From Candidatus Nanopelagicales bacterium (GTDB lineage: Bacteria; Actinomycetota; Actinomycetes; S36-B12; UBA5976): a DNA stretch of 33,458 bases. Below are positions 21,161 through 29,794 of this stretch, piece by piece. How positions within the stretch are numbered: position 1 is the stretch's first letter; each line of letters begins with the position of its first letter. Under the pieces are notes generated by a model. The model saw only the letters and a program-made list of their open reading frames with translations. It did no database searches and was not told the DNA's origin. Where the stretch lies: contig JBIIZV010000001.1 of the NCBI GenBank assembly GCA_044346095.1, positions 1-33,458 of the forward strand, read 5' to 3'. The position numbers and the translations under genes were made by a program.

Positions 21161-21523
21161 GTGAAGAAAACGACTTTAGTGATCGGCGCGATCGAATCTG
21201 GCGCCATTTTCCTTTATGGCTTAGTGATTGTCATCAGGGGAACTTTGGAAGAAAGCACGGTAGGTTCACCGTTAGTGCAGTTCATTATTTACACCGTTTT
21301 TGCACTCTCACTTGCAGCCTGCACTCGCGGAATTTCAAAGCAACAGAACTGGGCACGTACGCCGTTCTACTTGCTGCAACTGTTTATCGTAATCGCTGGG
21401 TACACACTTTTATATGGCACGTTAATGGTTTACAAAGTTGTCGGAGTTATTGTCGGCGCGGTTGGCATAGCGGGATTTGTGGCACTGCTTAGAACACCAC
21501 AACAAGATCGATTAACTAACTAA
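21161..21523 (+). CDS. hypothetical 4-TM membrane protein
   Basis: Hydrophobic 120-aa ORF with GTG start. No family recognised. Confidence 0.45.
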   Translation: MKKTTLVIGAIESGAIFLYGLVIVIRGTLEESTVGSPLVQFIIYTVFALSLAACTRGISKQQNWARTPFYLLQLFIVIAGYTLLYGTLMVYKVVGVIVGAVGIAGFVALLRTPQQDRLTN

Positions 21524-22264
21524 GCCTTCTCGCAAGTGACTTAGAACTTTGTTCAAGATTCGCGAAACATGCATCTGCGAAATACCTAGCTCAGCTGCTA
21601 TTTGACTTTGGCTTTGGTTTTCAAAAAATCTCATCTGCAGAATTCGCTTTTCGCGATCGTCCAGTTCAGCAAGTAATGGCTTGAGAGATTCGCGGTACTC
21701 GACTCCTTCAAGCGCCTCATCTAAAGCCCCGAAAGTATCACCAATGCTTGTTGAAGTGTCTGTTGTTACATCCAGGCTCACCGTGGAATAGGCTGCGTTC
21801 GATTCCAAAGCTTCGGCAACTTCGTCAACAGTTATTCCCAGATGCTTGGCGATTTCTTTTGGTGTAGGTGAGCGATCAAGTTTGTGCGTTAGCTCAGTAG
21901 TTGCTTTAGTAACAGAGGCTCCTAGTTCCTGAAGTCTTCGGGGAACTCTGACTGCCCAAGTCTTATCTCGGAAATGTCGTTTGATTTCACCAACAATGGT
22001 TGGTGTGGCAAAAGTGGAGAACTCAAATCCCTTTGAGATTTCGAACCTGTCGATTGCCTTTATCAATCCAATAGTTCCTACCTGGATCAAGTCATCAAGT
22101 GGTTCACCACGATCCGCAAACTTTCGTGCCATGAAGGTAACCAATGGCAAATGTCGCTCAATCAACGCAGCACGAAGTATCTCGTGTTCATTGGTACCTG
22201 CTTCTAGAGCTGCAAGTTGCTCGAACATCTCACGATCGGCTGACCGTAAGTCGTCTTTAGGCAC
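21512..22264 (-). CDS. group 3 sigma factor, SigB/SigF/SigG family
   Basis: Region 2 DLIQVGTIGLIKAIDRF, region 3, and region 4 SQSQIAAELGISQMHVSRIL. Confidence 0.9.
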   Translation of the reverse strand: MPKDDLRSADREMFEQLAALEAGTNEHEILRAALIERHLPLVTFMARKFADRGEPLDDLIQVGTIGLIKAIDRFEISKGFEFSTFATPTIVGEIKRHFRDKTWAVRVPRRLQELGASVTKATTELTHKLDRSPTPKEIAKHLGITVDEVAEALESNAAYSTVSLDVTTDTSTSIGDTFGALDEALEGVEYRESLKPLLAELDDREKRILQMRFFENQSQSQIAAELGISQMHVSRILNKVLSHLREGLVS

Positions 22265-22628
22265 TTGCCACCACTTTGGCGGTTAGCAACAAAGTCACTA
22301 AGCCTGCCGGAGAAGTATGAGTTGAAACTTCGTGCACCAAGGCACTAAGTACTGTCCAAGCAAAAGATGATTTGTCTGGGGGAGGGCTGCCAGCTGGACC
22401 AGTTAGTTCAATGTCTAACTTCTCAGCATGGATCTTGAATTGAATGGTGACAACACCAGACTGCGGCTTATGTGCAATCAGAACTGCAAAGGCTTCGTCG
22501 ACGGCTAATCGCAAGTCATCAATGGCATCTATGGTTAAGTCCGCATGTGCAGCAATGTGCGCAGCAGTGCTTCGAATTAACCCAACATATTCTGGTTCGG
22601 CCGGAACGGCTAAATCTATTGTGTTCAC
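22257..22628 (-). CDS. RsbW/UsfX-like anti-sigma factor, apparently lacking ATP-lid G-boxes
   Basis: Its 3' end overlaps the start of the sigma gene (22257-22264). The N-terminus LAVPAEPEYVGLIRSTAAHIAA...DDLRLAVDEAFAVLI resembles the HATPase_c N-box region. No DxGxG/GxGxG motif is visible. GTG start. Confidence 0.6.
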   Translation of the reverse strand: MNTIDLAVPAEPEYVGLIRSTAAHIAAHADLTIDAIDDLRLAVDEAFAVLIAHKPQSGVVTIQFKIHAEKLDIELTGPAGSPPPDKSSFAWTVLSALVHEVSTHTSPAGLVTLLLTAKVVASA

Positions 22629-23242: not shown

Positions 23243-23635
23243 TTACTTCTTTGAGTCTGCGAAAATTGCTGCAATTTCGTCGATCTTTGCGATCAACTGG
23301 TCAGCAACTGCTACATCATTTGTTCCCTTGGTGCCACCGGCGCCAGCAAGCTTTGTAGCTTCGTTGAATAGTTCGTTTAGATTTGGGTACTTCTCAAAGT
23401 GAGGTGCCTTGAAGTAGTCAGTCCAAAGAACCCAGAGGTGTTCTTTAACCTGGTGTGAGCGATCTTCTTTGATTGCAACTGCACGAGCCTTGAAGTCTGC
23501 ATCATCGGATGCGTGGTACTTCTCCATGCAGGCCTTTACAGAAAGTGCTTCGATCCGAGCCTGAGCTGGGTCGTAGATGCCACAAGGTAGGTCGCAGTGA
23601 GCATTCACTGCAATTGTTGATGCGAAAAGCTTCAT
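23243..23635 (-). CDS. sodN: nickel superoxide dismutase precursor
   Basis: A 12-aa leader precedes the Ni-hook HCDLPCGIYDP. Confidence 0.95.
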   Translation of the reverse strand: MKLFASTIAVNAHCDLPCGIYDPAQARIEALSVKACMEKYHASDDADFKARAVAIKEDRSHQVKEHLWVLWTDYFKAPHFEKYPNLNELFNEATKLAGAGGTKGTNDVAVADQLIAKIDEIAAIFADSKK

Positions 23636-23688
23636 AATTCCTCCGAAGATATAGCGGATGTCCGCGTACCTAAAGATTACCGCCGCTG

Positions 23689-23716
23689 GTTCCAGCCTGC
23701 AGATTAGGGCTGGAAC
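23689..23716. promoter_or_regulatory. 9-bp perfect inverted repeat in sodN/sodX divergent region
   Basis: GTTCCAGCC-N10-GGCTGGAAC ends 10 nt before the sodX ATG and starts 54 nt upstream of the sodN ATG. Confidence 0.4.
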
Positions 23717-23725
23717 AATAGGAAT

Positions 23726-24028
23726 ATGCGTTATCGAATGGCAGTTGTTTCAGGCTTAAGCATGATTCCTACCTTGGCCCCAGGGGAACGCCTTCTGGTG
23801 CGCCTGGATGGCCCAATAGTTATCGGTGACATCGCGGTGTTTCAGCGCGCTAATCAGTTCGACGTAAAACGAATTTTACGAATTGAAGCAGACGGGGTTT
23901 TTGTCCAGGGGGACAATGACCTAGTCAGCACCGATTCCAGGACATACGGACTTATCCCACATGACAACGCAATCGGTGTTGCAACCTATCGACTCTGGCC
24001 CAAGCCAGGACGAATCAAACAGGAATAA
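23726..24028 (+). CDS. sodX: NiSOD maturation protease (S26 signal-peptidase family)
   Basis: SGLSMIPTL catalytic-Ser motif, ~100 aa, divergent from sodN. Confidence 0.85.
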   Translation: MRYRMAVVSGLSMIPTLAPGERLLVRLDGPIVIGDIAVFQRANQFDVKRILRIEADGVFVQGDNDLVSTDSRTYGLIPHDNAIGVATYRLWPKPGRIKQE

Positions 24029-24776
24029 GCGTGTTTGCAAAGATCTGCCAAGCTAGCAGTGACTTTGCAACCAAACTCAACACAATGTAAATGCGCTCGC
24101 CGTGTAAGTAGTTGCTCCATTTACCTTTGGCTTTGTATTGCTTGTATTGAACCCAGGCGAATGAATTAAACAGCACAAAGATAGTCACGATAATTCCGTA
24201 CACAAAAGCTGGTGCACTTGCATCGGATGGGTTACCCGGAGAAATTACGTAAATCGCAACTGCTAGCCATGGCACCATACCTGTGATGCAACCAAAAATG
24301 TAAGGAACCCAGCCGCCATTTCCTGGCTGTTCGTACTTCTCTTGCAACCAACCGAAAAGAATCATGGATGCATTCACACCGAAGATCGCAACAAGTGCAG
24401 TCACATCTGCGATGCCGGTAATTTGTGCAATCAAAACGATCATCACAGAAGAGCTAATTGAGTACTCAACCCAACGGAAGTAGTTGTGCTTTTCTTCTAA
24501 GCCCTTGCCATAACGACCAAAGAATTGTGGGCTAGCAACAATGAAATGAGCTAGTGCCGAAAGTCCAAGGAACAATGCCACCATCAAGGCAAGTGGTGTT
24601 TCAAAAACAACTACAGGATCGGAGTACACCGACCCAGGCGGACCAGCCATGTATGTGGCTGTTACTGGAAGACTGAAATCTGTTGATAGCGCTAGTACTG
24701 CAACCATCTGCAACAGGTGCACAACGCCTGCAATCAAATTGAATCGACGTAGGCCTGGAATCGTTAGTTTGCTCAT
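24015..24776 (-). CDS. heliorhodopsin
   Basis: 7 TM segments. Lys238 in SLVAKSLLAWQIF (last helix), Glu104 in FRWVEYSISSSVMIVLIAQ, His20 and His77. The K/R-rich N-terminus predicts N-in topology. Long motif identity, from memory, to heliorhodopsin 48C12. Confidence 0.93.
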   Translation of the reverse strand: MSKLTIPGLRRFNLIAGVVHLLQMVAVLALSTDFSLPVTATYMAGPPGSVYSDPVVVFETPLALMVALFLGLSALAHFIVASPQFFGRYGKGLEEKHNYFRWVEYSISSSVMIVLIAQITGIADVTALVAIFGVNASMILFGWLQEKYEQPGNGGWVPYIFGCITGMVPWLAVAIYVISPGNPSDASAPAFVYGIIVTIFVLFNSFAWVQYKQYKAKGKWSNYLHGERIYIVLSLVAKSLLAWQIFANTLIPV

Positions 24777-24848
24777 AACTCAAGCGTACTTAGCGGTACG
24801 TCAATTCAATTGATTTAAGTTACTTTATTTGTCCAATTAAGCAACGAG

Positions 24849-25811
24849 TTACGGGACTATTACAAGCTTTCCTTGGATTTCGCCCTGTTCCATGAGTTCG
24901 TAACCTTGCTTTGCATCCTCAAGCGAGAACACTTGTTGAATGTGTGGACGTAGTCCAGTTTCACCTAGGAACTTAAGTAAACCTTCAAACTCAACGCGAG
25001 TTCCCATAGTGGAGCCAACTACTTCTAGCTGCAAGAAGAACAGGCGATTCAAATCAGCTGGGGGATTAGCACCACTGGTTGCGCCACAGATAACGATTTT
25101 CCCGCCAGGTCGCAGACTTCGCATGGAGTGTGACCACGTTGCTTCGCCAACACTTTCCATGACGGCATCAACTTTTCCTGGCAATCGCGCACCGGATTCA
25201 AATGCTTCACTTGCTCCGATTGACTTTGCATATTCGCGCTTAGCTTCATCGCGTGAGGTTACCCAAGTTACGAAACCAGCCGCATTAGCAAGTTGAATAA
25301 GTGCAGTAGCAACGCCGCCGCCTGCACCTTGAATAAGTACTGTGTCACCCTTCTTTAAACCAGACTTTGTGAAAAGCATTCGGTATGCAGTTAGCCAGGC
25401 GGTAGGTAAGCAGGCAGCTTCTTCAAAGGAAAGGAAATCAGGTTTTGGAATTACGTTGTATGCCGGAACGGTTACATACTCAGCATGGGTACCGTCGTGT
25501 ACTTCACTAAGTAGTGATCTCTTCGGATCCAGGGTTTCATCACCTTTGGAAGGATCACCCAAAACAGCATGGACAATTACAGCGGTTCCGTCATCTAGCG
25601 TCCCAGCTGCATCTGAGCCCAGAACAATTGGAAGATTTTCTGGAGCAGTTGCAACGCCACGAAGAGTCCAAACGTCATGGTGATTGATCGCAGCCGCCTT
25701 TACGGCAACTCGCACCCAACCTTCAGGTACAACTGGATCTGGATGATCACAAATTGAAAATCCTTCAAATGGATTTTCTAGATTTCCACTTACAGCAACT
25801 ACTGCGCGCAT
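24849..25811 (-). CDS. MDR-superfamily NADPH:quinone oxidoreductase-like protein
   Basis: GroES-like N-domain plus a GAGGGVATALIQLA Rossmann motif. No catalytic-Zn GHE motif is evident. Confidence 0.8.
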   Translation of the reverse strand: MRAVVAVSGNLENPFEGFSICDHPDPVVPEGWVRVAVKAAAINHHDVWTLRGVATAPENLPIVLGSDAAGTLDDGTAVIVHAVLGDPSKGDETLDPKRSLLSEVHDGTHAEYVTVPAYNVIPKPDFLSFEEAACLPTAWLTAYRMLFTKSGLKKGDTVLIQGAGGGVATALIQLANAAGFVTWVTSRDEAKREYAKSIGASEAFESGARLPGKVDAVMESVGEATWSHSMRSLRPGGKIVICGATSGANPPADLNRLFFLQLEVVGSTMGTRVEFEGLLKFLGETGLRPHIQQVFSLEDAKQGYELMEQGEIQGKLVIVP

Positions 25812-25993
25812 CAGACATCTTCCTCATCGTCGTCGAGACGAGCCAGCCAAGTTGCTAGTCGCTCAGTTGGTATTTCAAAGTCAGGGAAGGTATCAACAAA
25901 TTCCCGCATGCGTTCTGCTAACCATTCAAACGTAACTTCTTCTTCGCCACGTCGCTTTTCTAGCTCTTCAATTCCTCGGTCAGTAAAGTACAT
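25811..25993 (-). CDS. small acidic conserved actinobacterial protein (DUF6104-like, from memory)
   Basis: 60 aa, MYFTDRGIEELEKRRGEEEV...LARLDDDEEDV. Its stop overlaps the next start (ATGA). Confidence 0.55.
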   Translation of the reverse strand: MYFTDRGIEELEKRRGEEEVTFEWLAERMREFVDTFPDFEIPTERLATWLARLDDDEEDV

Positions 25994-26017: not shown

Positions 26018-29000
26018 CTAGCTAAATGCCTGGGCAACAAGGGCTTGCTGTTCCAATTCACTGCGGTGGTGGGAACCAACAGCTGGTGAACTTGAAGCCG
26101 GGCGAGAAATTCCGGTGATTGCGCGGTTTATCAAAGCTGGCAGATTCATTGCCATGAAACTCCATGCACCTTGATTCGCTGGCTCTTCTTGAACCCAGCG
26201 AACATTCTTCAGGTTCTTGTAGCGCTCAAGTTCTGGCGGCAGTGTGATTGCCGGCAGTGGGTAAAGGCGTTCGAGTCGAACAATTGCGACGTCTTTACGG
26301 CCTTGCTTTTCGCGCTCGGCAGCTAGGTCGTAGTAGACCTTTCCGCTACATAGCAATACTGAAGTCACATCATCTGGATTAACTGCTGTGTCACCAATGA
26401 TTGCCTTGAAAGTGCCTTCGGTAAAGTCGCTAACTTTCGAAGTTGCAAACTTCGCCCGAAGTAATGACTTAGGTGTAAACACTACAAGTGGTCGAGTCAA
26501 AGTGGACTTTACTTGCCAGCGCAACAAGTGGAAGAAACTTGCTGGAGTTGTTGGCATTGCAACTGTGATGTTGTCCTGCGCACATTGTTGCAAGAAGCGT
26601 TCAACGCGGGCGGAAGAGTGATCCGGTCCTTGACCTTCATAGCCATGTGGAAGCAACAGGACAACGCTGCTCTTTTGCGCCCACTTTTGCTCACCCGTTG
26701 TTATGTATTCATCAATGATGGTTTGCGCACCATTTGCGAAGTCACCAAATTGGGCTTCCCACATAGTTAATGCTTCTGGGCGAATTACTGAGTATCCGTA
26801 CTCAAATCCCATTGCTGCGTATTCACTTAGCAAGGAATCATAAACATCAAGTTTCGCACCGGCTTCGTAACAAGTCTTAAGTGGCTTGTACTGCCAACCA
26901 GTTTGCTTATCAACAATCACAGCGTGACGATGGCCAAAGGTTCCGCGGCGACTGTCTTGCCCAGCTAGGCGAACAACGGTGCCTTCAGTAAGTAGCGATC
27001 CGATAGCTAATGCTTCGCCCATACCCCAATCGATTGCATCTGTTGCAACCATTTCGGCACGGCGAGCAAGCTGTGGCGCTAGACGCGGATGAACGGTGAA
27101 CCCTTCAGGCATATTCGTTTGGCTTGCCACAACGCGATCAATAACTTCGCGACTGATTGCCGTTGGAACTTCCCAAGTTGGAGTTTGTGGTGCCAGGGTT
27201 TGCTGACCATGGGAAATAACCTCAGATGCTGAAGCATTGAAGTGTTCCGCTGATTCAGACTTAGTTGCTTGGAATACACCTTCAAGTTCATCTTGGTAAT
27301 GCTTAAGCGCTGCCTCAGCTTCTTCCAAAGTGATGTCACCACGACCAACAAGCGCTTCGGTGTAAAGCTTTCGAACCGAACGCTTCTGATCGATGATGTC
27401 GTACATAAGTGGCTGAGTTAGTGATGGGTCATCAGCTTCGTTATGTCCGCGACGACGGTAACAAACTAAGTCGATGACAACATCTTTGTGGAAAGCCTGG
27501 CGGAAATCGTAAGCCAGTTGCGCAACGCGAACTACTGCTTCTGGATCATCGCCATTGACATGGAATACTGGAGCCTGGATCGTGCGAGCCACGTCAGTTG
27601 AGTAAACACTTGTGCGGCTGTATCTAGGTGAAGTTGTGAAGCCAACTTGGTTGTTGATAACCAAGTGAATGGTTCCGCCAACTCGGTATCCCTGCAATTG
27701 ACTCATCTGAAGTGTTTCGGCAACTACACCTTGACCGGCAAATGCGGCATCACCGTGCATAAGCAATGGCAATACGGAGTACTTTTCTTTAGATCCTTCG
27801 CCGGACTGAGCAATTATGTCCTGCTTAGCGCGCACAATTCCCTCGAGCACTGGATTAACCGCTTCTAGGTGTGAAGGGTTTGCAGCTAGATAAACCTTTA
27901 CTTCTTCGCCGCCAGCAGCCTTGTATGTGCTCTTGGTTCCCAAGTGATACTTAACGTCGCCAGAACCTTGGACTGATTCCTCGCCATAGTTACCTTCAAA
28001 TTCATTGAAGATTCGGCCGTATCCCTTGCCAGCAATATTTGCCAGCACGTTTAAGCGGCCACGGTGTGGCATACCAATGCAAACTTCATCAAGTTCGTCT
28101 TTAGCTGCTTCGATCAAAATCTGATCAACGAATGGAATGGCGCTTTCGCCACCTTCAAGACTGAAGCGCTTTTGTCCTACGTACTTTGTTTGCAAGAAGC
28201 TTTCAAAAGCCTCAGCTTCATTTAGCTTGCGAAGGATTCGCAACTGTTCATCGCGATCGACTTTGTCCTGCTTGCGTTCTAGTCGATCCTGAATCCACTT
28301 ACGCTGTTCTGGATCTTGCAGGTGCATGTATTCGATACCGATTGTGCGGCAGTAAGCGTCACGAAGTGTTCCCAAGATGTCGCGCAGCATGGCAAATGGG
28401 CGACCACCAAATCCACCTGTGGCAAACTCACGATCCAAATCCCATAAAGTCATTCCGTGATTGGCAATATCTAGATCTGGGTGGGATCGCTGGTGGTATT
28501 CAAGCGGATCAATGTCAGCCAATAAATGACCACGCACGCGGAACGCATGGATCATCTCTTGAACTCGAGCAGTTTTATCTAGATCAGCATCATGAGAAGT
28601 AGCTAGGTCTTGTGCCCAACGAATTGGCTCATATGGAATTTGCAAGGAACGGAAGATATCATCGTAAAAACCATCGGTGCCAAGCAGTAACTGATGAACT
28701 CGACGCAAGAAATCACCTGATTGCGCACCTTGAATTACTCGGTGGTCATAAGTGCTAGTGAAAGTCATGATCTTGCTAACGGCATTTCTAGCTAACGCAT
28801 CATCTGAAGCGCCTTGCCATTCAGCTGGGTAATCCATTGCGCCAACGCCAATGATGACGCCTTGTCCTGGCATCAATCTAGGAACTGAGTGAACGGTTCC
28901 AATTGTTCCTGGGTTTGTCAGGCTGGCTGTGGTTCCTTGAAAATCTTCAACAGCAAGTTTGCCGGCGCGAGCTTTACGAATTACCTCTTCATACCCAGCC

Positions 29001-29680
29001 CAAAAAGCTGCAAAGTCCATGGTGTCGGCTGACTTAATGCAAGGAACAAGTAACTGACGAGAACCATCTTCTTTTGCAAGGTCAATTGCAAGTCCCAGAC
29101 CAACTTGTTGGTGACGAGCAATTGCAGGCTTACCTTCAACGGTTGTATAAGACACATTCATGTCAGGCATTTCGCGCAAGGCACGAACAATTGCAAAACC
29201 AATGATGTGAGTGAAACTAACTTTGCCACCACGCCCGCGAGCTAAGTGATTGTTAATTACGATGCGGTTATCGACCATAAGTTTCGCAGGAACAGCGCGA
29301 ACTGAAGTTGCCGTTGGAATTTCAAGGCTGGCTTCCATGTTTGTTACAACGCGCGCTGAAGTTCCTTTAAGTTTTTCAATGACATCATCAGCAAGTGAAG
29401 CAGGTGCTGGCTTGGCAGCAGGGGCAGTGCCTTCGTTAGTTGCTGGAGCAGGTGCTTGAACAGTGGCGACAGGCTGAGCGACTGCAGGTGCAGCTGCTGG
29501 TGCAACTGGCGCAGCAGGCTTTGTTGCTGAAGCATGAGGCGAGTGGTCAGCGGGAGAGTAGTCGGCGAAAAATTCCCACCAGGCTGGATCAACTGATTGC
29601 TTGTCTTCTAAAAACTGTTGATATAACTCGTCAACGAGCCAATCGTTTGCACCAAATGGACTATTTGTTGGTCCGGACAC
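26018..29680 (-). CDS. kgd: multifunctional 2-oxoglutarate decarboxylase/dehydrogenase E1 with fused succinyltransferase domain (Kgd/OdhA type)
   Basis: NSPFGANDWLVDELYQQF N-terminus, Ala/Pro linker, E2-like catalytic core (STYDHRVIQGA) and ThDP E1 domains. GTG 29680 has an AAGGAAGG SD ~10 nt upstream; the track start is ATG 29758. Confidence 0.93.
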   Translation of the reverse strand: MSGPTNSPFGANDWLVDELYQQFLEDKQSVDPAWWEFFADYSPADHSPHASATKPAAPVAPAAAPAVAQPVATVQAPAPATNEGTAPAAKPAPASLADDVIEKLKGTSARVVTNMEASLEIPTATSVRAVPAKLMVDNRIVINNHLARGRGGKVSFTHIIGFAIVRALREMPDMNVSYTTVEGKPAIARHQQVGLGLAIDLAKEDGSRQLLVPCIKSADTMDFAAFWAGYEEVIRKARAGKLAVEDFQGTTASLTNPGTIGTVHSVPRLMPGQGVIIGVGAMDYPAEWQGASDDALARNAVSKIMTFTSTYDHRVIQGAQSGDFLRRVHQLLLGTDGFYDDIFRSLQIPYEPIRWAQDLATSHDADLDKTARVQEMIHAFRVRGHLLADIDPLEYHQRSHPDLDIANHGMTLWDLDREFATGGFGGRPFAMLRDILGTLRDAYCRTIGIEYMHLQDPEQRKWIQDRLERKQDKVDRDEQLRILRKLNEAEAFESFLQTKYVGQKRFSLEGGESAIPFVDQILIEAAKDELDEVCIGMPHRGRLNVLANIAGKGYGRIFNEFEGNYGEESVQGSGDVKYHLGTKSTYKAAGGEEVKVYLAANPSHLEAVNPVLEGIVRAKQDIIAQSGEGSKEKYSVLPLLMHGDAAFAGQGVVAETLQMSQLQGYRVGGTIHLVINNQVGFTTSPRYSRTSVYSTDVARTIQAPVFHVNGDDPEAVVRVAQLAYDFRQAFHKDVVIDLVCYRRRGHNEADDPSLTQPLMYDIIDQKRSVRKLYTEALVGRGDITLEEAEAALKHYQDELEGVFQATKSESAEHFNASASEVISHGQQTLAPQTPTWEVPTAISREVIDRVVASQTNMPEGFTVHPRLAPQLARRAEMVATDAIDWGMGEALAIGSLLTEGTVVRLAGQDSRRGTFGHRHAVIVDKQTGWQYKPLKTCYEAGAKLDVYDSLLSEYAAMGFEYGYSVIRPEALTMWEAQFGDFANGAQTIIDEYITTGEQKWAQKSSVVLLLPHGYEGQGPDHSSARVERFLQQCAQDNITVAMPTTPASFFHLLRWQVKSTLTRPLVVFTPKSLLRAKFATSKVSDFTEGTFKAIIGDTAVNPDDVTSVLLCSGKVYYDLAAEREKQGRKDVAIVRLERLYPLPAITLPPELERYKNLKNVRWVQEEPANQGAWSFMAMNLPALINRAITGISRPASSSPAVGSHHRSELEQQALVAQAFS

Positions 29681-29794
29681 GGCTTGGGGGCCTTCCTTGT
29701 TGAACTCGAGATACTGCTCTATAGGGAAATCGTATCGCCCATCTGACAAGGGCTTCAACGTGCATAAGCCTTGGGGCTAGGGCAGGGTAAGAGC

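Follow-up and report, generated by a model that had tools for sequence, protein, structure and literature searches.

Heliorhodopsin 48C12 (PDB IDs 6SU3, 6SU4, 6UH3 and 9LJJ) comes from a Lake Kinneret actinobacterial fosmid and follows a ‘positive-inside, negative-outside’ rule (Kovalev et al., PMC7049168). AbHeR, from Actinobacteria bacterium IMCC26103, belongs to the same order (acI/Nanopelagicales) and the same subfamily as the protein described here; it binds and light-activates glutamine synthetase (GS) through lysines of its third cytoplasmic loop, where K216, K217 and K220 are needed for binding and K216 is critical. TaHeR (Thermoplasmatales archaeon SG8-52-1; PDB IDs 6IS6, 7U55 and 7CLJ) shares the fold family (E=5e-58) but is much more distant in sequence and has an archaeal host. 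The heliorhodopsins measured so far absorb at 530-556 nm, with AbHeR at 556 nm, and regulation of a partner has been demonstrated for only three of them, each with a different partner. According to the literature heliorhodopsins are restricted to monoderm hosts. The type-1 rhodopsins (bacteriorhodopsin, actinorhodopsin; PF01036) likewise have seven helices, with retinal bound to a lysine in helix G and a carboxylate in helix C as the counterion.

Identity of the heliorhodopsin gene

The gene studied here lies in a 33-kb window, by which we mean the whole stretch of 33,458 nucleotides that was analysed, and was taken from the open reading frame (ORF) listing and its translation:

24015-24776, minus strand: heliorhodopsin coding sequence, 253 amino acids plus stop, ATG start

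An earlier note on this DNA had called the ORF a heliorhodopsin and proposed a profile search and an alignment to 48C12 as checks, and both gave the predicted outcome. The call is borne out by full-length profile matches, to PF18761 in Pfam (E=3e-98; 328.4 bits, cut-off 26.7; all 242 profile positions, 1-242, covered) and to the NCBIfam heliorhodopsin equivalog NF038020 (344 bits, cut-off 100), and by an alignment to the PDB chains of 48C12 (6SU3, 6UH3 and 9LJJ; E~1e-112, structure at 1.5 Å) that shows 70% identity over 247 residues (6-252) with zero gaps and a constant offset of +3. Profile and PDB matches at these E-values are far beyond chance, while the type-1 rhodopsin model PF01036 scores 14.1 bits, below its cut-off of 24.6. 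Moreover, the dN/dS of the gene against close relatives is 0.012-0.035. The peptides quoted in the earlier note occur in the translation exactly as given (IVLSLVAKSLLAWQIF with K238 and FRWVEYSISSSVMIVLIAQ with E104), H20, H77, K3, R10 and R11 are all there, and the three blocks that it named match the 48C12 chains, namely IAGV[V/F]HLLQM, FGVNASMILFGWLQEKY (identical in both) and KGKWSNYL[H/R]GER[I/A]YIVLSLVAKS. Its background, that is the freshwater actinobacterial fosmid of 2018, the lack of pumping and the proposals of partner enzymes, agrees with the literature.

The genomes closest to the locus are Candidatus Nanopelagicales/Actinomycetota MAGs and the window has a fused Kgd of the actinobacterial type, both pointing to a monoderm host, and nothing contradicts membership of the ORF in the heliorhodopsin family. 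The identification is therefore correct, but it is not new, because heliorhodopsins are already known as a regular part of the gene set of the Nanopelagicales, which are abundant in freshwater. We could not uphold the gene's rank as the most remarkable in the window, as all Nanopelagicales isolates are reported to encode a heliorhodopsin and NCBI, JGI and ENA already contain this exact protein. The best explanation overall, and a very probable one, is that the ORF comes from Candidatus Nanopelagicales (acI) and specifies a functional heliorhodopsin belonging to the 48C12 (actinobacterial) subfamily, a non-pumping, slow light sensor, with the functional part of this reading drawn by homology.

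Retinal site and membrane topology

The ungapped alignment places the residues of the retinal site at the following codons, each invariant in 80 of 80 Nanopelagicales homologues:

24063-24065, minus strand: K238, retinal Schiff-base lysine in helix G (K241 of 48C12)
24075-24077, minus strand: S234 (S237 of 48C12)
24465-24467, minus strand: E104, Schiff-base counterion in helix C (E107 of 48C12)
24546-24548, minus strand: H77, lining the Schiff-base cavity (H80 of 48C12)
24717-24719, minus strand: H20, lining the Schiff-base cavity (H23 of 48C12)

Because the alignment is ungapped with an offset of +3, K238, E104, H20 and H77 are the equivalents of K241, E107, H23 and H80, as the earlier note had expected. 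K238 and S234 form an SxxxK motif in helix G (S234-L-V-A-K238) that replaces the DxxxK of type-1 rhodopsins, and helix C reads R101-W-V-E104-Y, confirming that the RYxDW pump motif is absent. The proton-donor carboxylate of the type-1 proteins is also missing, with M112 (M115 in 48C12) at the position of bacteriorhodopsin D96. The description of E104 as a single buried Glu holds insofar as it is the sole acidic residue in helix C, but other membrane-proximal ones are conserved, namely E227 (E230 of 48C12), which lines the Schiff-base cavity, and E146 (E149). In all, 43 of the 45 residues listed as structurally important in 48C12 (Kovalev et al., PMC7049168) are identical in the ORF and most of these positions are invariant among the 80 homologues; the identical set includes E104, S73 and S108 together with H20, H77, N98, Y105, N13, E227, R101 and Y89. 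By homology, all-trans-retinal would be bound through a Schiff base to K238 within S234-x-x-x-K238, E104 would serve as counterion held by S73 and S108, and the last eight residues named would line a polar, water-holding Schiff-base cavity. From 48C12, TaHeR and AbHeR we would expect absorption of green light near 550 nm and a long photocycle.

Similar to 48C12, the protein has the Schiff-base lysine, SxxxK, the Glu counterion with its serines, both histidines and the cavity residues, as well as the aromatic residues of the retinal pocket, the region around E149, the charge asymmetry and, on the extracellular side, the dimer contact Y179-D127. It departs from 48C12 at F79, which is A76 here as in TaHeR and Cv06, at L202 and F162, which are I199 and Y159, both as in TaHeR, and at S201, which is Thr; among the retinal-pocket residues listed for 48C12, only L202 is changed. 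A76, I199 and Y159 thus have the TaHeR states, whereas Q213 of 48C12 is kept as Q210 and is Met in TaHeR. The cytoplasmic dimer contact Y151-D158' of 48C12 cannot form here, since all 80 Nanopelagicales sequences have Gly at position 155. Among the heliorhodopsin loci compared, none exceeds ~71% identity to 48C12, so that the lineage of 48C12 itself was not found there.

Seven hydrophobic helices had been read from the letters, and the ungapped alignment with the solved structure gives the same number, although hydropathy by itself separates six blocks, as no more than four residues (ADVT) lie between helices C and D. The hydropathy blocks are consistent with a fold of seven helices and a long extracellular A-B hairpin, in which P37 (P40 of 48C12) is invariant in the Nanopelagicales homologues. 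With the Schiff-base lysine excluded, 13 Lys and Arg residues lie on the predicted cytoplasmic side and 0 outside, where there are 5 Asp and Glu; the 13 sit in the N-terminus, in loops B-C, D-E and F-G and in the adjoining helix ends, and the other loops and the C-terminus have 0. This distribution, the same as in 48C12, supports a cytoplasmic N-terminus as proposed earlier, with all basic loops predicted to face the cytoplasm. The charge asymmetry is the reverse of that in type-1 rhodopsins, and the topology is therefore predicted to be inverted relative to theirs.

Ion pumping would not be expected, both from the characterised relatives and because hydrophobicity is kept throughout the extracellular half and Met occupies the proton-donor position. 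A protein acting mainly as a light harvester or transporter, whether a two-chromophore rhodopsin with xanthophyll uptake via a lateral fenestration or a proton transporter like the viral V2HeR3, is one that we regard as highly improbable here. The residues at the five fenestration positions are retained, as is the conserved Asn (Y159, C163, G166, F203, A207 and N204, equal to the TaHeR set), and a preprint of 2025 makes the case that carotenoid binding is common to most heliorhodopsins, but this case consists of docking and structure comparison and not of binding in 48C12-type proteins. Viral heliorhodopsins can transport protons (PMC9448325); however, 48C12, TaHeR and Cv06 show no transport, and none of the residues that differ from 48C12 adds a charge to the outer half of the helices.

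The retinal itself would have to come from genes elsewhere, since no retinal or carotenoid biosynthesis gene, and no second rhodopsin, was found within the window. A 400-amino-acid FAD protein at 1149-2351 was considered as a lycopene cyclase and rejected, its Lycopene_cycl match covering only the N-terminal nucleotide-binding stretch. Some Nanopelagicales are reported to be without blh, which, together with the lack of such genes in the window, counts against the functional part of our reading.

The third cytoplasmic loop and glutamine synthetase

The most likely role of the protein is that of a non-pumping, slow-cycling light sensor acting on a cytoplasmic partner, with the light-driven conformational change relayed via the cytoplasmic face, and mainly its third loop, to a soluble protein. 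By comparison with AbHeR and its loop lysines, this loop is likely the docking surface:

24105-24143, minus strand: third cytoplasmic loop, residues 212-224, KQYKAKGKWSNYL, lysine-rich

The AbHeR residues K216, K217 and K220 correspond to K215, A216 and K219 here, with extra lysines at 212 and 217, and the stretch that reads LQYKGKGKW in 48C12 is KQYKAKGKW. Compared with the GS-binding type represented by AbHeR, the loop has K212 and not Leu, A216 and not Lys, and N222 and not Asp; outside it, His225 stands in place of Arg, and E94 in place of Ala in the first cytoplasmic loop. Heliorhodopsins found in a GS context are 65-74% identical to this one.

That the protein regulates glutamine synthetase as AbHeR does, with the enzyme encoded elsewhere in the genome, seems to us unlikely. 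AbHeR is from an acI strain and two of its partner-binding lysines, including the critical one, are kept here (K215, K219), while the mutation D223N made AbHeR bind more tightly, with a Kd about half as large, and N222 is the native residue in our protein. Moreover, 26 other Nanopelagicales species keep the published arrangement of NAD synthetase, GS and heliorhodopsin. Against this, Ala stands in place of AbHeR K217 and the loop has changes specific to this clade, no GS gene was found within the 33-kb window, and Cho et al. limit GS binding to a subgroup of heliorhodopsins.

Promoter, neighbouring genes and synteny

Genes of the AbHeR type lie behind those of NAD synthetase and GS in the same orientation, whereas the gene studied here follows an MDR-type oxidoreductase gene and faces sodX:

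24849-25811, minus strand: medium-chain (MDR-type) dehydrogenase (Zn-ADH/quinone-oxidoreductase-like; PF00107, PF08240, PF13602), upstream of the heliorhodopsin gene
24777-24848, minus strand: AT-rich spacer of 72 nt between the oxidoreductase and heliorhodopsin genes (ORF listing, sequence)
24783-24788, minus strand: -10-like hexamer TACGCT (TANNNT), ending 6 nt before the ATG (sequence)
23726-24028, plus strand: sodX-like S26 peptidase (nickel superoxide dismutase maturation protease; PF10502), convergent
23243-23635, minus strand: sodN, nickel superoxide dismutase (Ni-SOD; PF09055, E=9e-42; TIGR02753, 134 bits against a cut-off of 90)

In NCBIfam the dehydrogenase is closest to the model of the PIG3-type quinone oxidoreductase but stays under the cut-off of that model, and the sodX-like peptidase scores 47 bits with TIGR02754, below the cut-off of 63. 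The sodN product has the N-terminal Ni-hook HCDLPCGIY after a 12-amino-acid propeptide. Upstream of the heliorhodopsin gene lie Kgd (the actinobacterial-type fused form), DUF6104 and the oxidoreductase, and downstream sodX, sodN, GNAT, rsbW and sigF, the RsbW/SigF genes being 1.4 kb away.

A sigma-70 consensus scan around the gene found no promoter upstream of it, the 24777-24848 spacer included, and an intrinsic terminator scan found no terminator-like hairpin between it and sodX; hits of these scans were at or below the shuffle expectation. An actinobacterial-style search for the -10 element alone was informative where the sigma-70 consensus scan was not. A TANNNT hexamer stands 6-7 nt before the ATG in 57 of 79 heliorhodopsin loci, against 8 expected by shuffling, and has this placement in ~20% of the other genes whose upstream region is free. 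There is no Shine-Dalgarno sequence before the ATG, and the gene is thus probably transcribed from a promoter of its own into a leaderless mRNA. The parts of the literature reached by our search contained no pairing of heliorhodopsin with leaderless transcripts.

For synteny, 11 neighbouring proteins were searched by tblastn against 80 heliorhodopsin loci and the neighbours then clustered. The order ADH-heliorhodopsin-sodX-sodN-GNAT-rsbW-sigF is kept in 22 related species genomes, in which SodX falls to 48% identity, and the MDR oxidoreductase gene adjoins the heliorhodopsin gene in 19 species genomes. Several smaller groups of loci have other, unrelated contexts. Our literature search, which covered PMC8591293 and PMC12008989 and otherwise titles and abstracts, returned no report of heliorhodopsin next to superoxide dismutase. 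We considered the Ni-SOD link as family-wide functional evidence and rejected it, as the arrangement occurs only where the heliorhodopsin is at least 84% identical to this one, and even there with four exceptions (84-88% identical, sited elsewhere); the link is clade-specific and therefore says little about function. A signal of partner specificity was likewise set aside, since the 16 positions fixed differently between the SOD- and GS-context groups show no enrichment in the cytoplasmic loops, where 4 of 47 positions are affected, against 12 of 206 elsewhere.

These data bear on whether the protein is wired to photo-oxidative-stress neighbours and, on sensing light, modulates the upstream quinone-oxidoreductase-like enzyme, the maturation of Ni-SOD (sodX/sodN) or the RsbW/SigF stress switch, which we consider quite unlikely. 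The persistence of the gene order in the 22 genomes despite the divergence of SodX speaks for such wiring, as do the overlap of the convergent heliorhodopsin and sodX 3' ends by 14 nt (24015-24028) with no terminator found between them, and the observation by Bulzu et al. that redox genes are enriched near heliorhodopsins, from which they proposed a role in light-induced oxidative stress. However, the arrangement is limited to one clade, with the 26 GS-context species, the smaller groups and the four close exceptions all differing; the fixed differences are not concentrated in the cytoplasmic loops; sodX is on the opposite strand; and the heliorhodopsin gene appears to have its own promoter. 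Nanopelagicales genomes are small and streamlined, and the gene order may therefore persist by descent alone. A more specific version, in which a photo-oxidative-stress module of this clade has taken up the heliorhodopsin as its light input, acting on the adjacent quinone-oxidoreductase-like enzyme or coupled to Ni-SOD maturation by convergent transcripts that overlap with sodX, is in our view distinctly improbable.

We keep to the reading of a non-pumping light sensor. The acI/Nanopelagicales are the most abundant freshwater bacterioplankton, and given this abundance any new clue to the role of heliorhodopsin would be useful, although this locus adds little. Its value is modest and comparative: a clade of 22 genomes has its heliorhodopsin gene between an MDR oxidoreductase and the Ni-SOD maturation pair, and not behind GS. 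The third cytoplasmic loop of the clade is correspondingly different and offers a natural contrast to AbHeR for assays of heliorhodopsin-partner binding. Were recruitment into a stress module true, it would add a fourth kind of heliorhodopsin partner and put the oxidative-stress hypothesis of Bulzu et al. directly to the test.

Identity, chromophore site and topology

The gene under study, HeR (24015..24776, minus strand), is an ATG-started open reading frame of 762 nt encoding 253 aa. Our searches bear out what the earlier note saw in it and support its interpretation as a correctly annotated heliorhodopsin. We found that the Pfam model PF18761 (Heliorhodopsin) matched across its entire profile (1-242 of 242, E=3e-98) with 328 bits, where the gathering score is 26.7, and that the NCBIfam equivalog NF038020 ('heliorhodopsin HeR') gave 344 bits (cut-off 100); in the profile search the type-1 rhodopsin model PF01036 reached 14.1 bits, below its cut-off of 24.6. 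When all PDB chains were searched, the top matches were three sets of structures of 48C12, the founding heliorhodopsin (9LJJ; 6SU3/6SU4; 6UH3; E from 8e-112 to 1.5e-110), followed by the archaeal TaHeR (6IS6/7U55 and 7CLJ, E ~1e-58) and then the eukaryotic Cv06 (9VFC, E 7.5e-39). BLASTP aligned HeR to 48C12 residues 9-255 with 172/247 identities (70%) and no gaps, and because the offset is constant at +3, the predicted equivalents K238=K241, E104=E107, H20=H23 and H77=H80 are exact. These four residues, together with K3, R10, R11 and the peptides quoted in the note, were all found as claimed, the K238 and E104 codons lie at 24063-24065 and 24465-24467 on the minus strand, and the note's three heliorhodopsin sequence blocks proved correct against the 48C12 chains. 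The seven helices claimed for the protein are recovered through alignment to the solved structure, although a simple hydropathy scan alone yields six hydrophobic blocks, since helices C and D fuse across a spacer of only four residues (ADVT).

Kovalev et al. (PMC7049168) list the 48C12 residues of the Schiff-base region, the water-filled Schiff-base cavity, the hydrophobic barrier, the E149 region, the retinal pocket, the surface polar clusters, the dimer contacts and the conserved basic residues. We mapped 45 of these onto HeR and observed that 43/45 are identical, the departures being S201 to T198 and D158 to G155. The catalytic-core positions are invariant among 80 aligned Nanopelagicales homologues, and the SxxxK motif described as heliorhodopsin-defining in a 2025 study of cultivated Nanopelagicales is present as S234-LVA-K238. 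Three further pocket or cavity positions, A76 (F79 in 48C12), I199 (L202) and Y159 (F162), are in the TaHeR state. Similar to 48C12, HeR has a Met (M112) where bacteriorhodopsin has its proton donor D96, and its substitutions relative to 48C12 introduce no charged residue into the outer half of the helices, whose uncharged character Kovalev et al. (PMC7049168) tied to the lack of pumping. Apart from the Schiff-base lysine, HeR has 13 Lys/Arg, and with helix limits taken over from 48C12 every one of them lies on the same side, in the N-terminus, in loops B-C, D-E and F-G or at the adjoining cytoplasmic helix ends; the C-terminus and loops A-B, C-D and E-F contain five Asp/Glu and no Lys/Arg. 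This is the 'positive-inside, negative-outside' pattern of 48C12 (Kovalev et al., PMC7049168), and the computed split of 13 inside to 0 outside, backed by homology, supports the cytoplasmic N-terminus proposed from the positive-inside rule. Against close relatives with unsaturated dS (0.3-1.2), dN/dS is 0.012-0.035, and HeR is therefore under strong purifying selection.

Judged from its sequence, then, HeR carries the chromophore site, counterion, cavity and charge asymmetry of the family, maintained by purifying selection. The best-supported reading is that it would act as a photoreceptor that binds retinal, absorbs green light, pumps no ions and has a long photocycle; its light-driven conformational change would be passed via the cytoplasmic face to a soluble partner. 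Its colour, lack of pumping, photocycle and partner regulation we infer from 48C12, TaHeR and AbHeR, an acI heliorhodopsin that regulates glutamine synthetase (GS); measured heliorhodopsins absorb at 530-556 nm, and AbHeR at 556 nm. It has alternatively been suggested that such proteins harvest light with a carotenoid antenna, and HeR does retain the fenestration residues Y159, C163, G166, F203, A207 and N204, but this hypothesis is itself built on docking in a preprint.

Gene neighbourhood

In minus-strand reading order, HeR is flanked by the following features:

26018-29758, minus strand, fused Kgd/OdhA (Kgd), first in this order
25811-25993, minus strand, DUF6104 gene, between Kgd and the medium-chain dehydrogenase
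24849-25811, minus strand, medium-chain dehydrogenase of quinone-oxidoreductase type, immediately upstream of HeR
72-nt spacer between the dehydrogenase and HeR
23726-24028, plus strand, sodX-like S26 peptidase of 100 aa, resembling the Ni-SOD maturation protease SodX
23243-23635, sodN, with the Ni-hook HCDLPCGIY behind a 12-residue propeptide
beyond sodN, a GNAT acetyltransferase, then an RsbW-like anti-sigma kinase, then a SigB/F/G-type sigma factor

HeR and the sodX-like gene are convergent, and their coding ends share 14 nt (24015-24028). The Ni-superoxide-dismutase pair is complete at 23243-24028, with sodN divergent from the peptidase gene; the peptidase scores 47 bits, under the NCBIfam Ni-SOD maturation protease cut-off of 63, and retains the signal-peptidase family's SM..P and KR box motifs. 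At 21512-22628 the RsbW-like kinase gene shares 8 nt with the start of the SigB/SigF/SigG-family gene, an overlap that suggests translational coupling; we saw no anti-anti-sigma (STAS) gene adjoining them, and the strand opposite the pair has a conserved 120-aa ORF (21161-21523) that no Pfam model matches. The mechanical Kgd/OdhA ORF has a TTG start and 1246 aa, of which NCBIfam PRK12270 covers residues 31-1245; as the public gene calls for the identical contig divide it into 63-aa and 1106-aa products, one of the two versions probably has the start wrong. The genome, which should be a streamlined one, also encodes in the window an aconitase X with two subunits (AcnX large and swivel) and a cytochrome P450 (10337-12045 and 13967-15301). 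The 33-kb window holds no carotenoid, retinal, photolyase, glutamine-synthetase or second rhodopsin gene; a 400-aa FAD-dependent oxidoreductase (1149-2351) with a weak N-terminal match to the lycopene cyclase model is no evidence for a carotenoid gene, the match being confined to the dinucleotide-binding stretch.

Context across species and the partner question

We compared HeR neighbours in 80 species-level loci, the best 80 of 178 relatives. With ADH denoting the oxidoreductase gene, 22 species share the order ADH-HeR-sodX-sodN-GNAT-rsbW-sigF, and in all of them HeR is at least 84% identical to that of the window, while SodX identity falls to 48%. In 26 other species, with HeRs 65-74% identical to ours, the order is NAD synthetase-glutamine synthetase-HeR, the arrangement of the polycistronic transcripts in Bulzu et al. 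and of the AbHeR study. In minor groups HeR lies beside a DUF4287 protein, an AI-2E transporter, an APH-type kinase or an NmrA/DUF2867 protein, and four HeRs 84-88% identical to ours (L025, L029, L030 and L031) lie in unrelated neighbourhoods, e.g. adjoining an NmrA/DUF2867 protein, which indicates relocation or transfer within Nanopelagicales, or a second copy. Given these GS-context species, smaller groups and exceptions, the Ni-SOD link is clade-specific. One rival reading would couple HeR to its adjoining redox and stress genes; the context fits the enrichment of redox genes near heliorhodopsins (Bulzu et al.), a fit that does not prove a functional tie, and the adjacency could stem from plain inheritance of gene order.

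Another rival reading is that HeR regulates a GS encoded at a distance. In AbHeR the third-loop residues K216, K217 and K220 are needed for GS binding, and D223N roughly halves the Kd, i.e. tightens binding (AbHeR study). The loop reads KQYKAKGKWSN in the window's clade versus LQYKKVGKWSD in the GS-context group; the critical K216 is K215 in HeR and K219 is retained too, whereas K217 is replaced by Ala and D223 by Asn. The SOD- and GS-context groups have fixed different residues at sixteen positions, and because these are not concentrated in cytoplasmic loops (4/47 loop positions versus 12/206 elsewhere), they give no clear sign of a partner change.

Transcript start and place in the Nanopelagicales

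A Shine-Dalgarno sequence is absent upstream of the HeR ATG, as in most Nanopelagicales HeR genes (L009-L088), and a TANNNT hexamer (TACGCT, 24788-24783, minus strand) ends 6 nt before it. Among actinobacterial promoters, leaderless mRNAs are marked by a lone -10 element some 7 nt ahead of the point where transcription starts. Such a hexamer ends 6-7 nt before the ATG in 57/79 HeR loci against 8 expected by shuffling, independent of which gene is upstream; once HeR genes are removed, ~20% (71/364) of the genes in these loci that have a free upstream region show it. These patterns suggest a leaderless mRNA made from HeR's own promoter whatever the upstream gene, and since HeR probably has its own promoter, operon-based inference of a partner is weakened. 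No terminator-like hairpin was found between HeR and sodX, so the two transcripts should overlap and be mutually antisense at their 3' ends; across relatives the spacing of the two coding ends varies between an overlap of 14 nt and a gap of 29 nt. Our literature search found no paper joining heliorhodopsin with leaderless transcripts.

The exact protein is present in NCBI, JGI/IMG and ENA, and falls in a 90%-identity cluster of 269 members, one labelled 'Heliorhodopsin' by its source. At least 18 metagenome contigs encode it, with identical neighbours in the eight listed. A scan with one genome per species gave 178 relatives, the best 80 of which (63-99% identity) are nearly all Candidatus Nanopelagicales, Planktophila or Actinomycetota, both MAGs and isolates. 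The window itself has ~48% GC and holds the actinobacterial fused Kgd/OdhA and housekeeping genes. The 2025 study of cultivated Nanopelagicales reported that all isolates encode both actinorhodopsin and heliorhodopsin, and that de novo retinal synthesis is confined to Planktophila and Aquilimus. Heliorhodopsin is thus a standard component of Nanopelagicales, and HeR represents a gene type that was already known and deposited, present in the host one would expect. Only two points are mildly new: in one clade HeR sits in a Ni-SOD/oxidoreductase context and has a variant third loop, and most Nanopelagicales HeR genes share a leaderless-type start.
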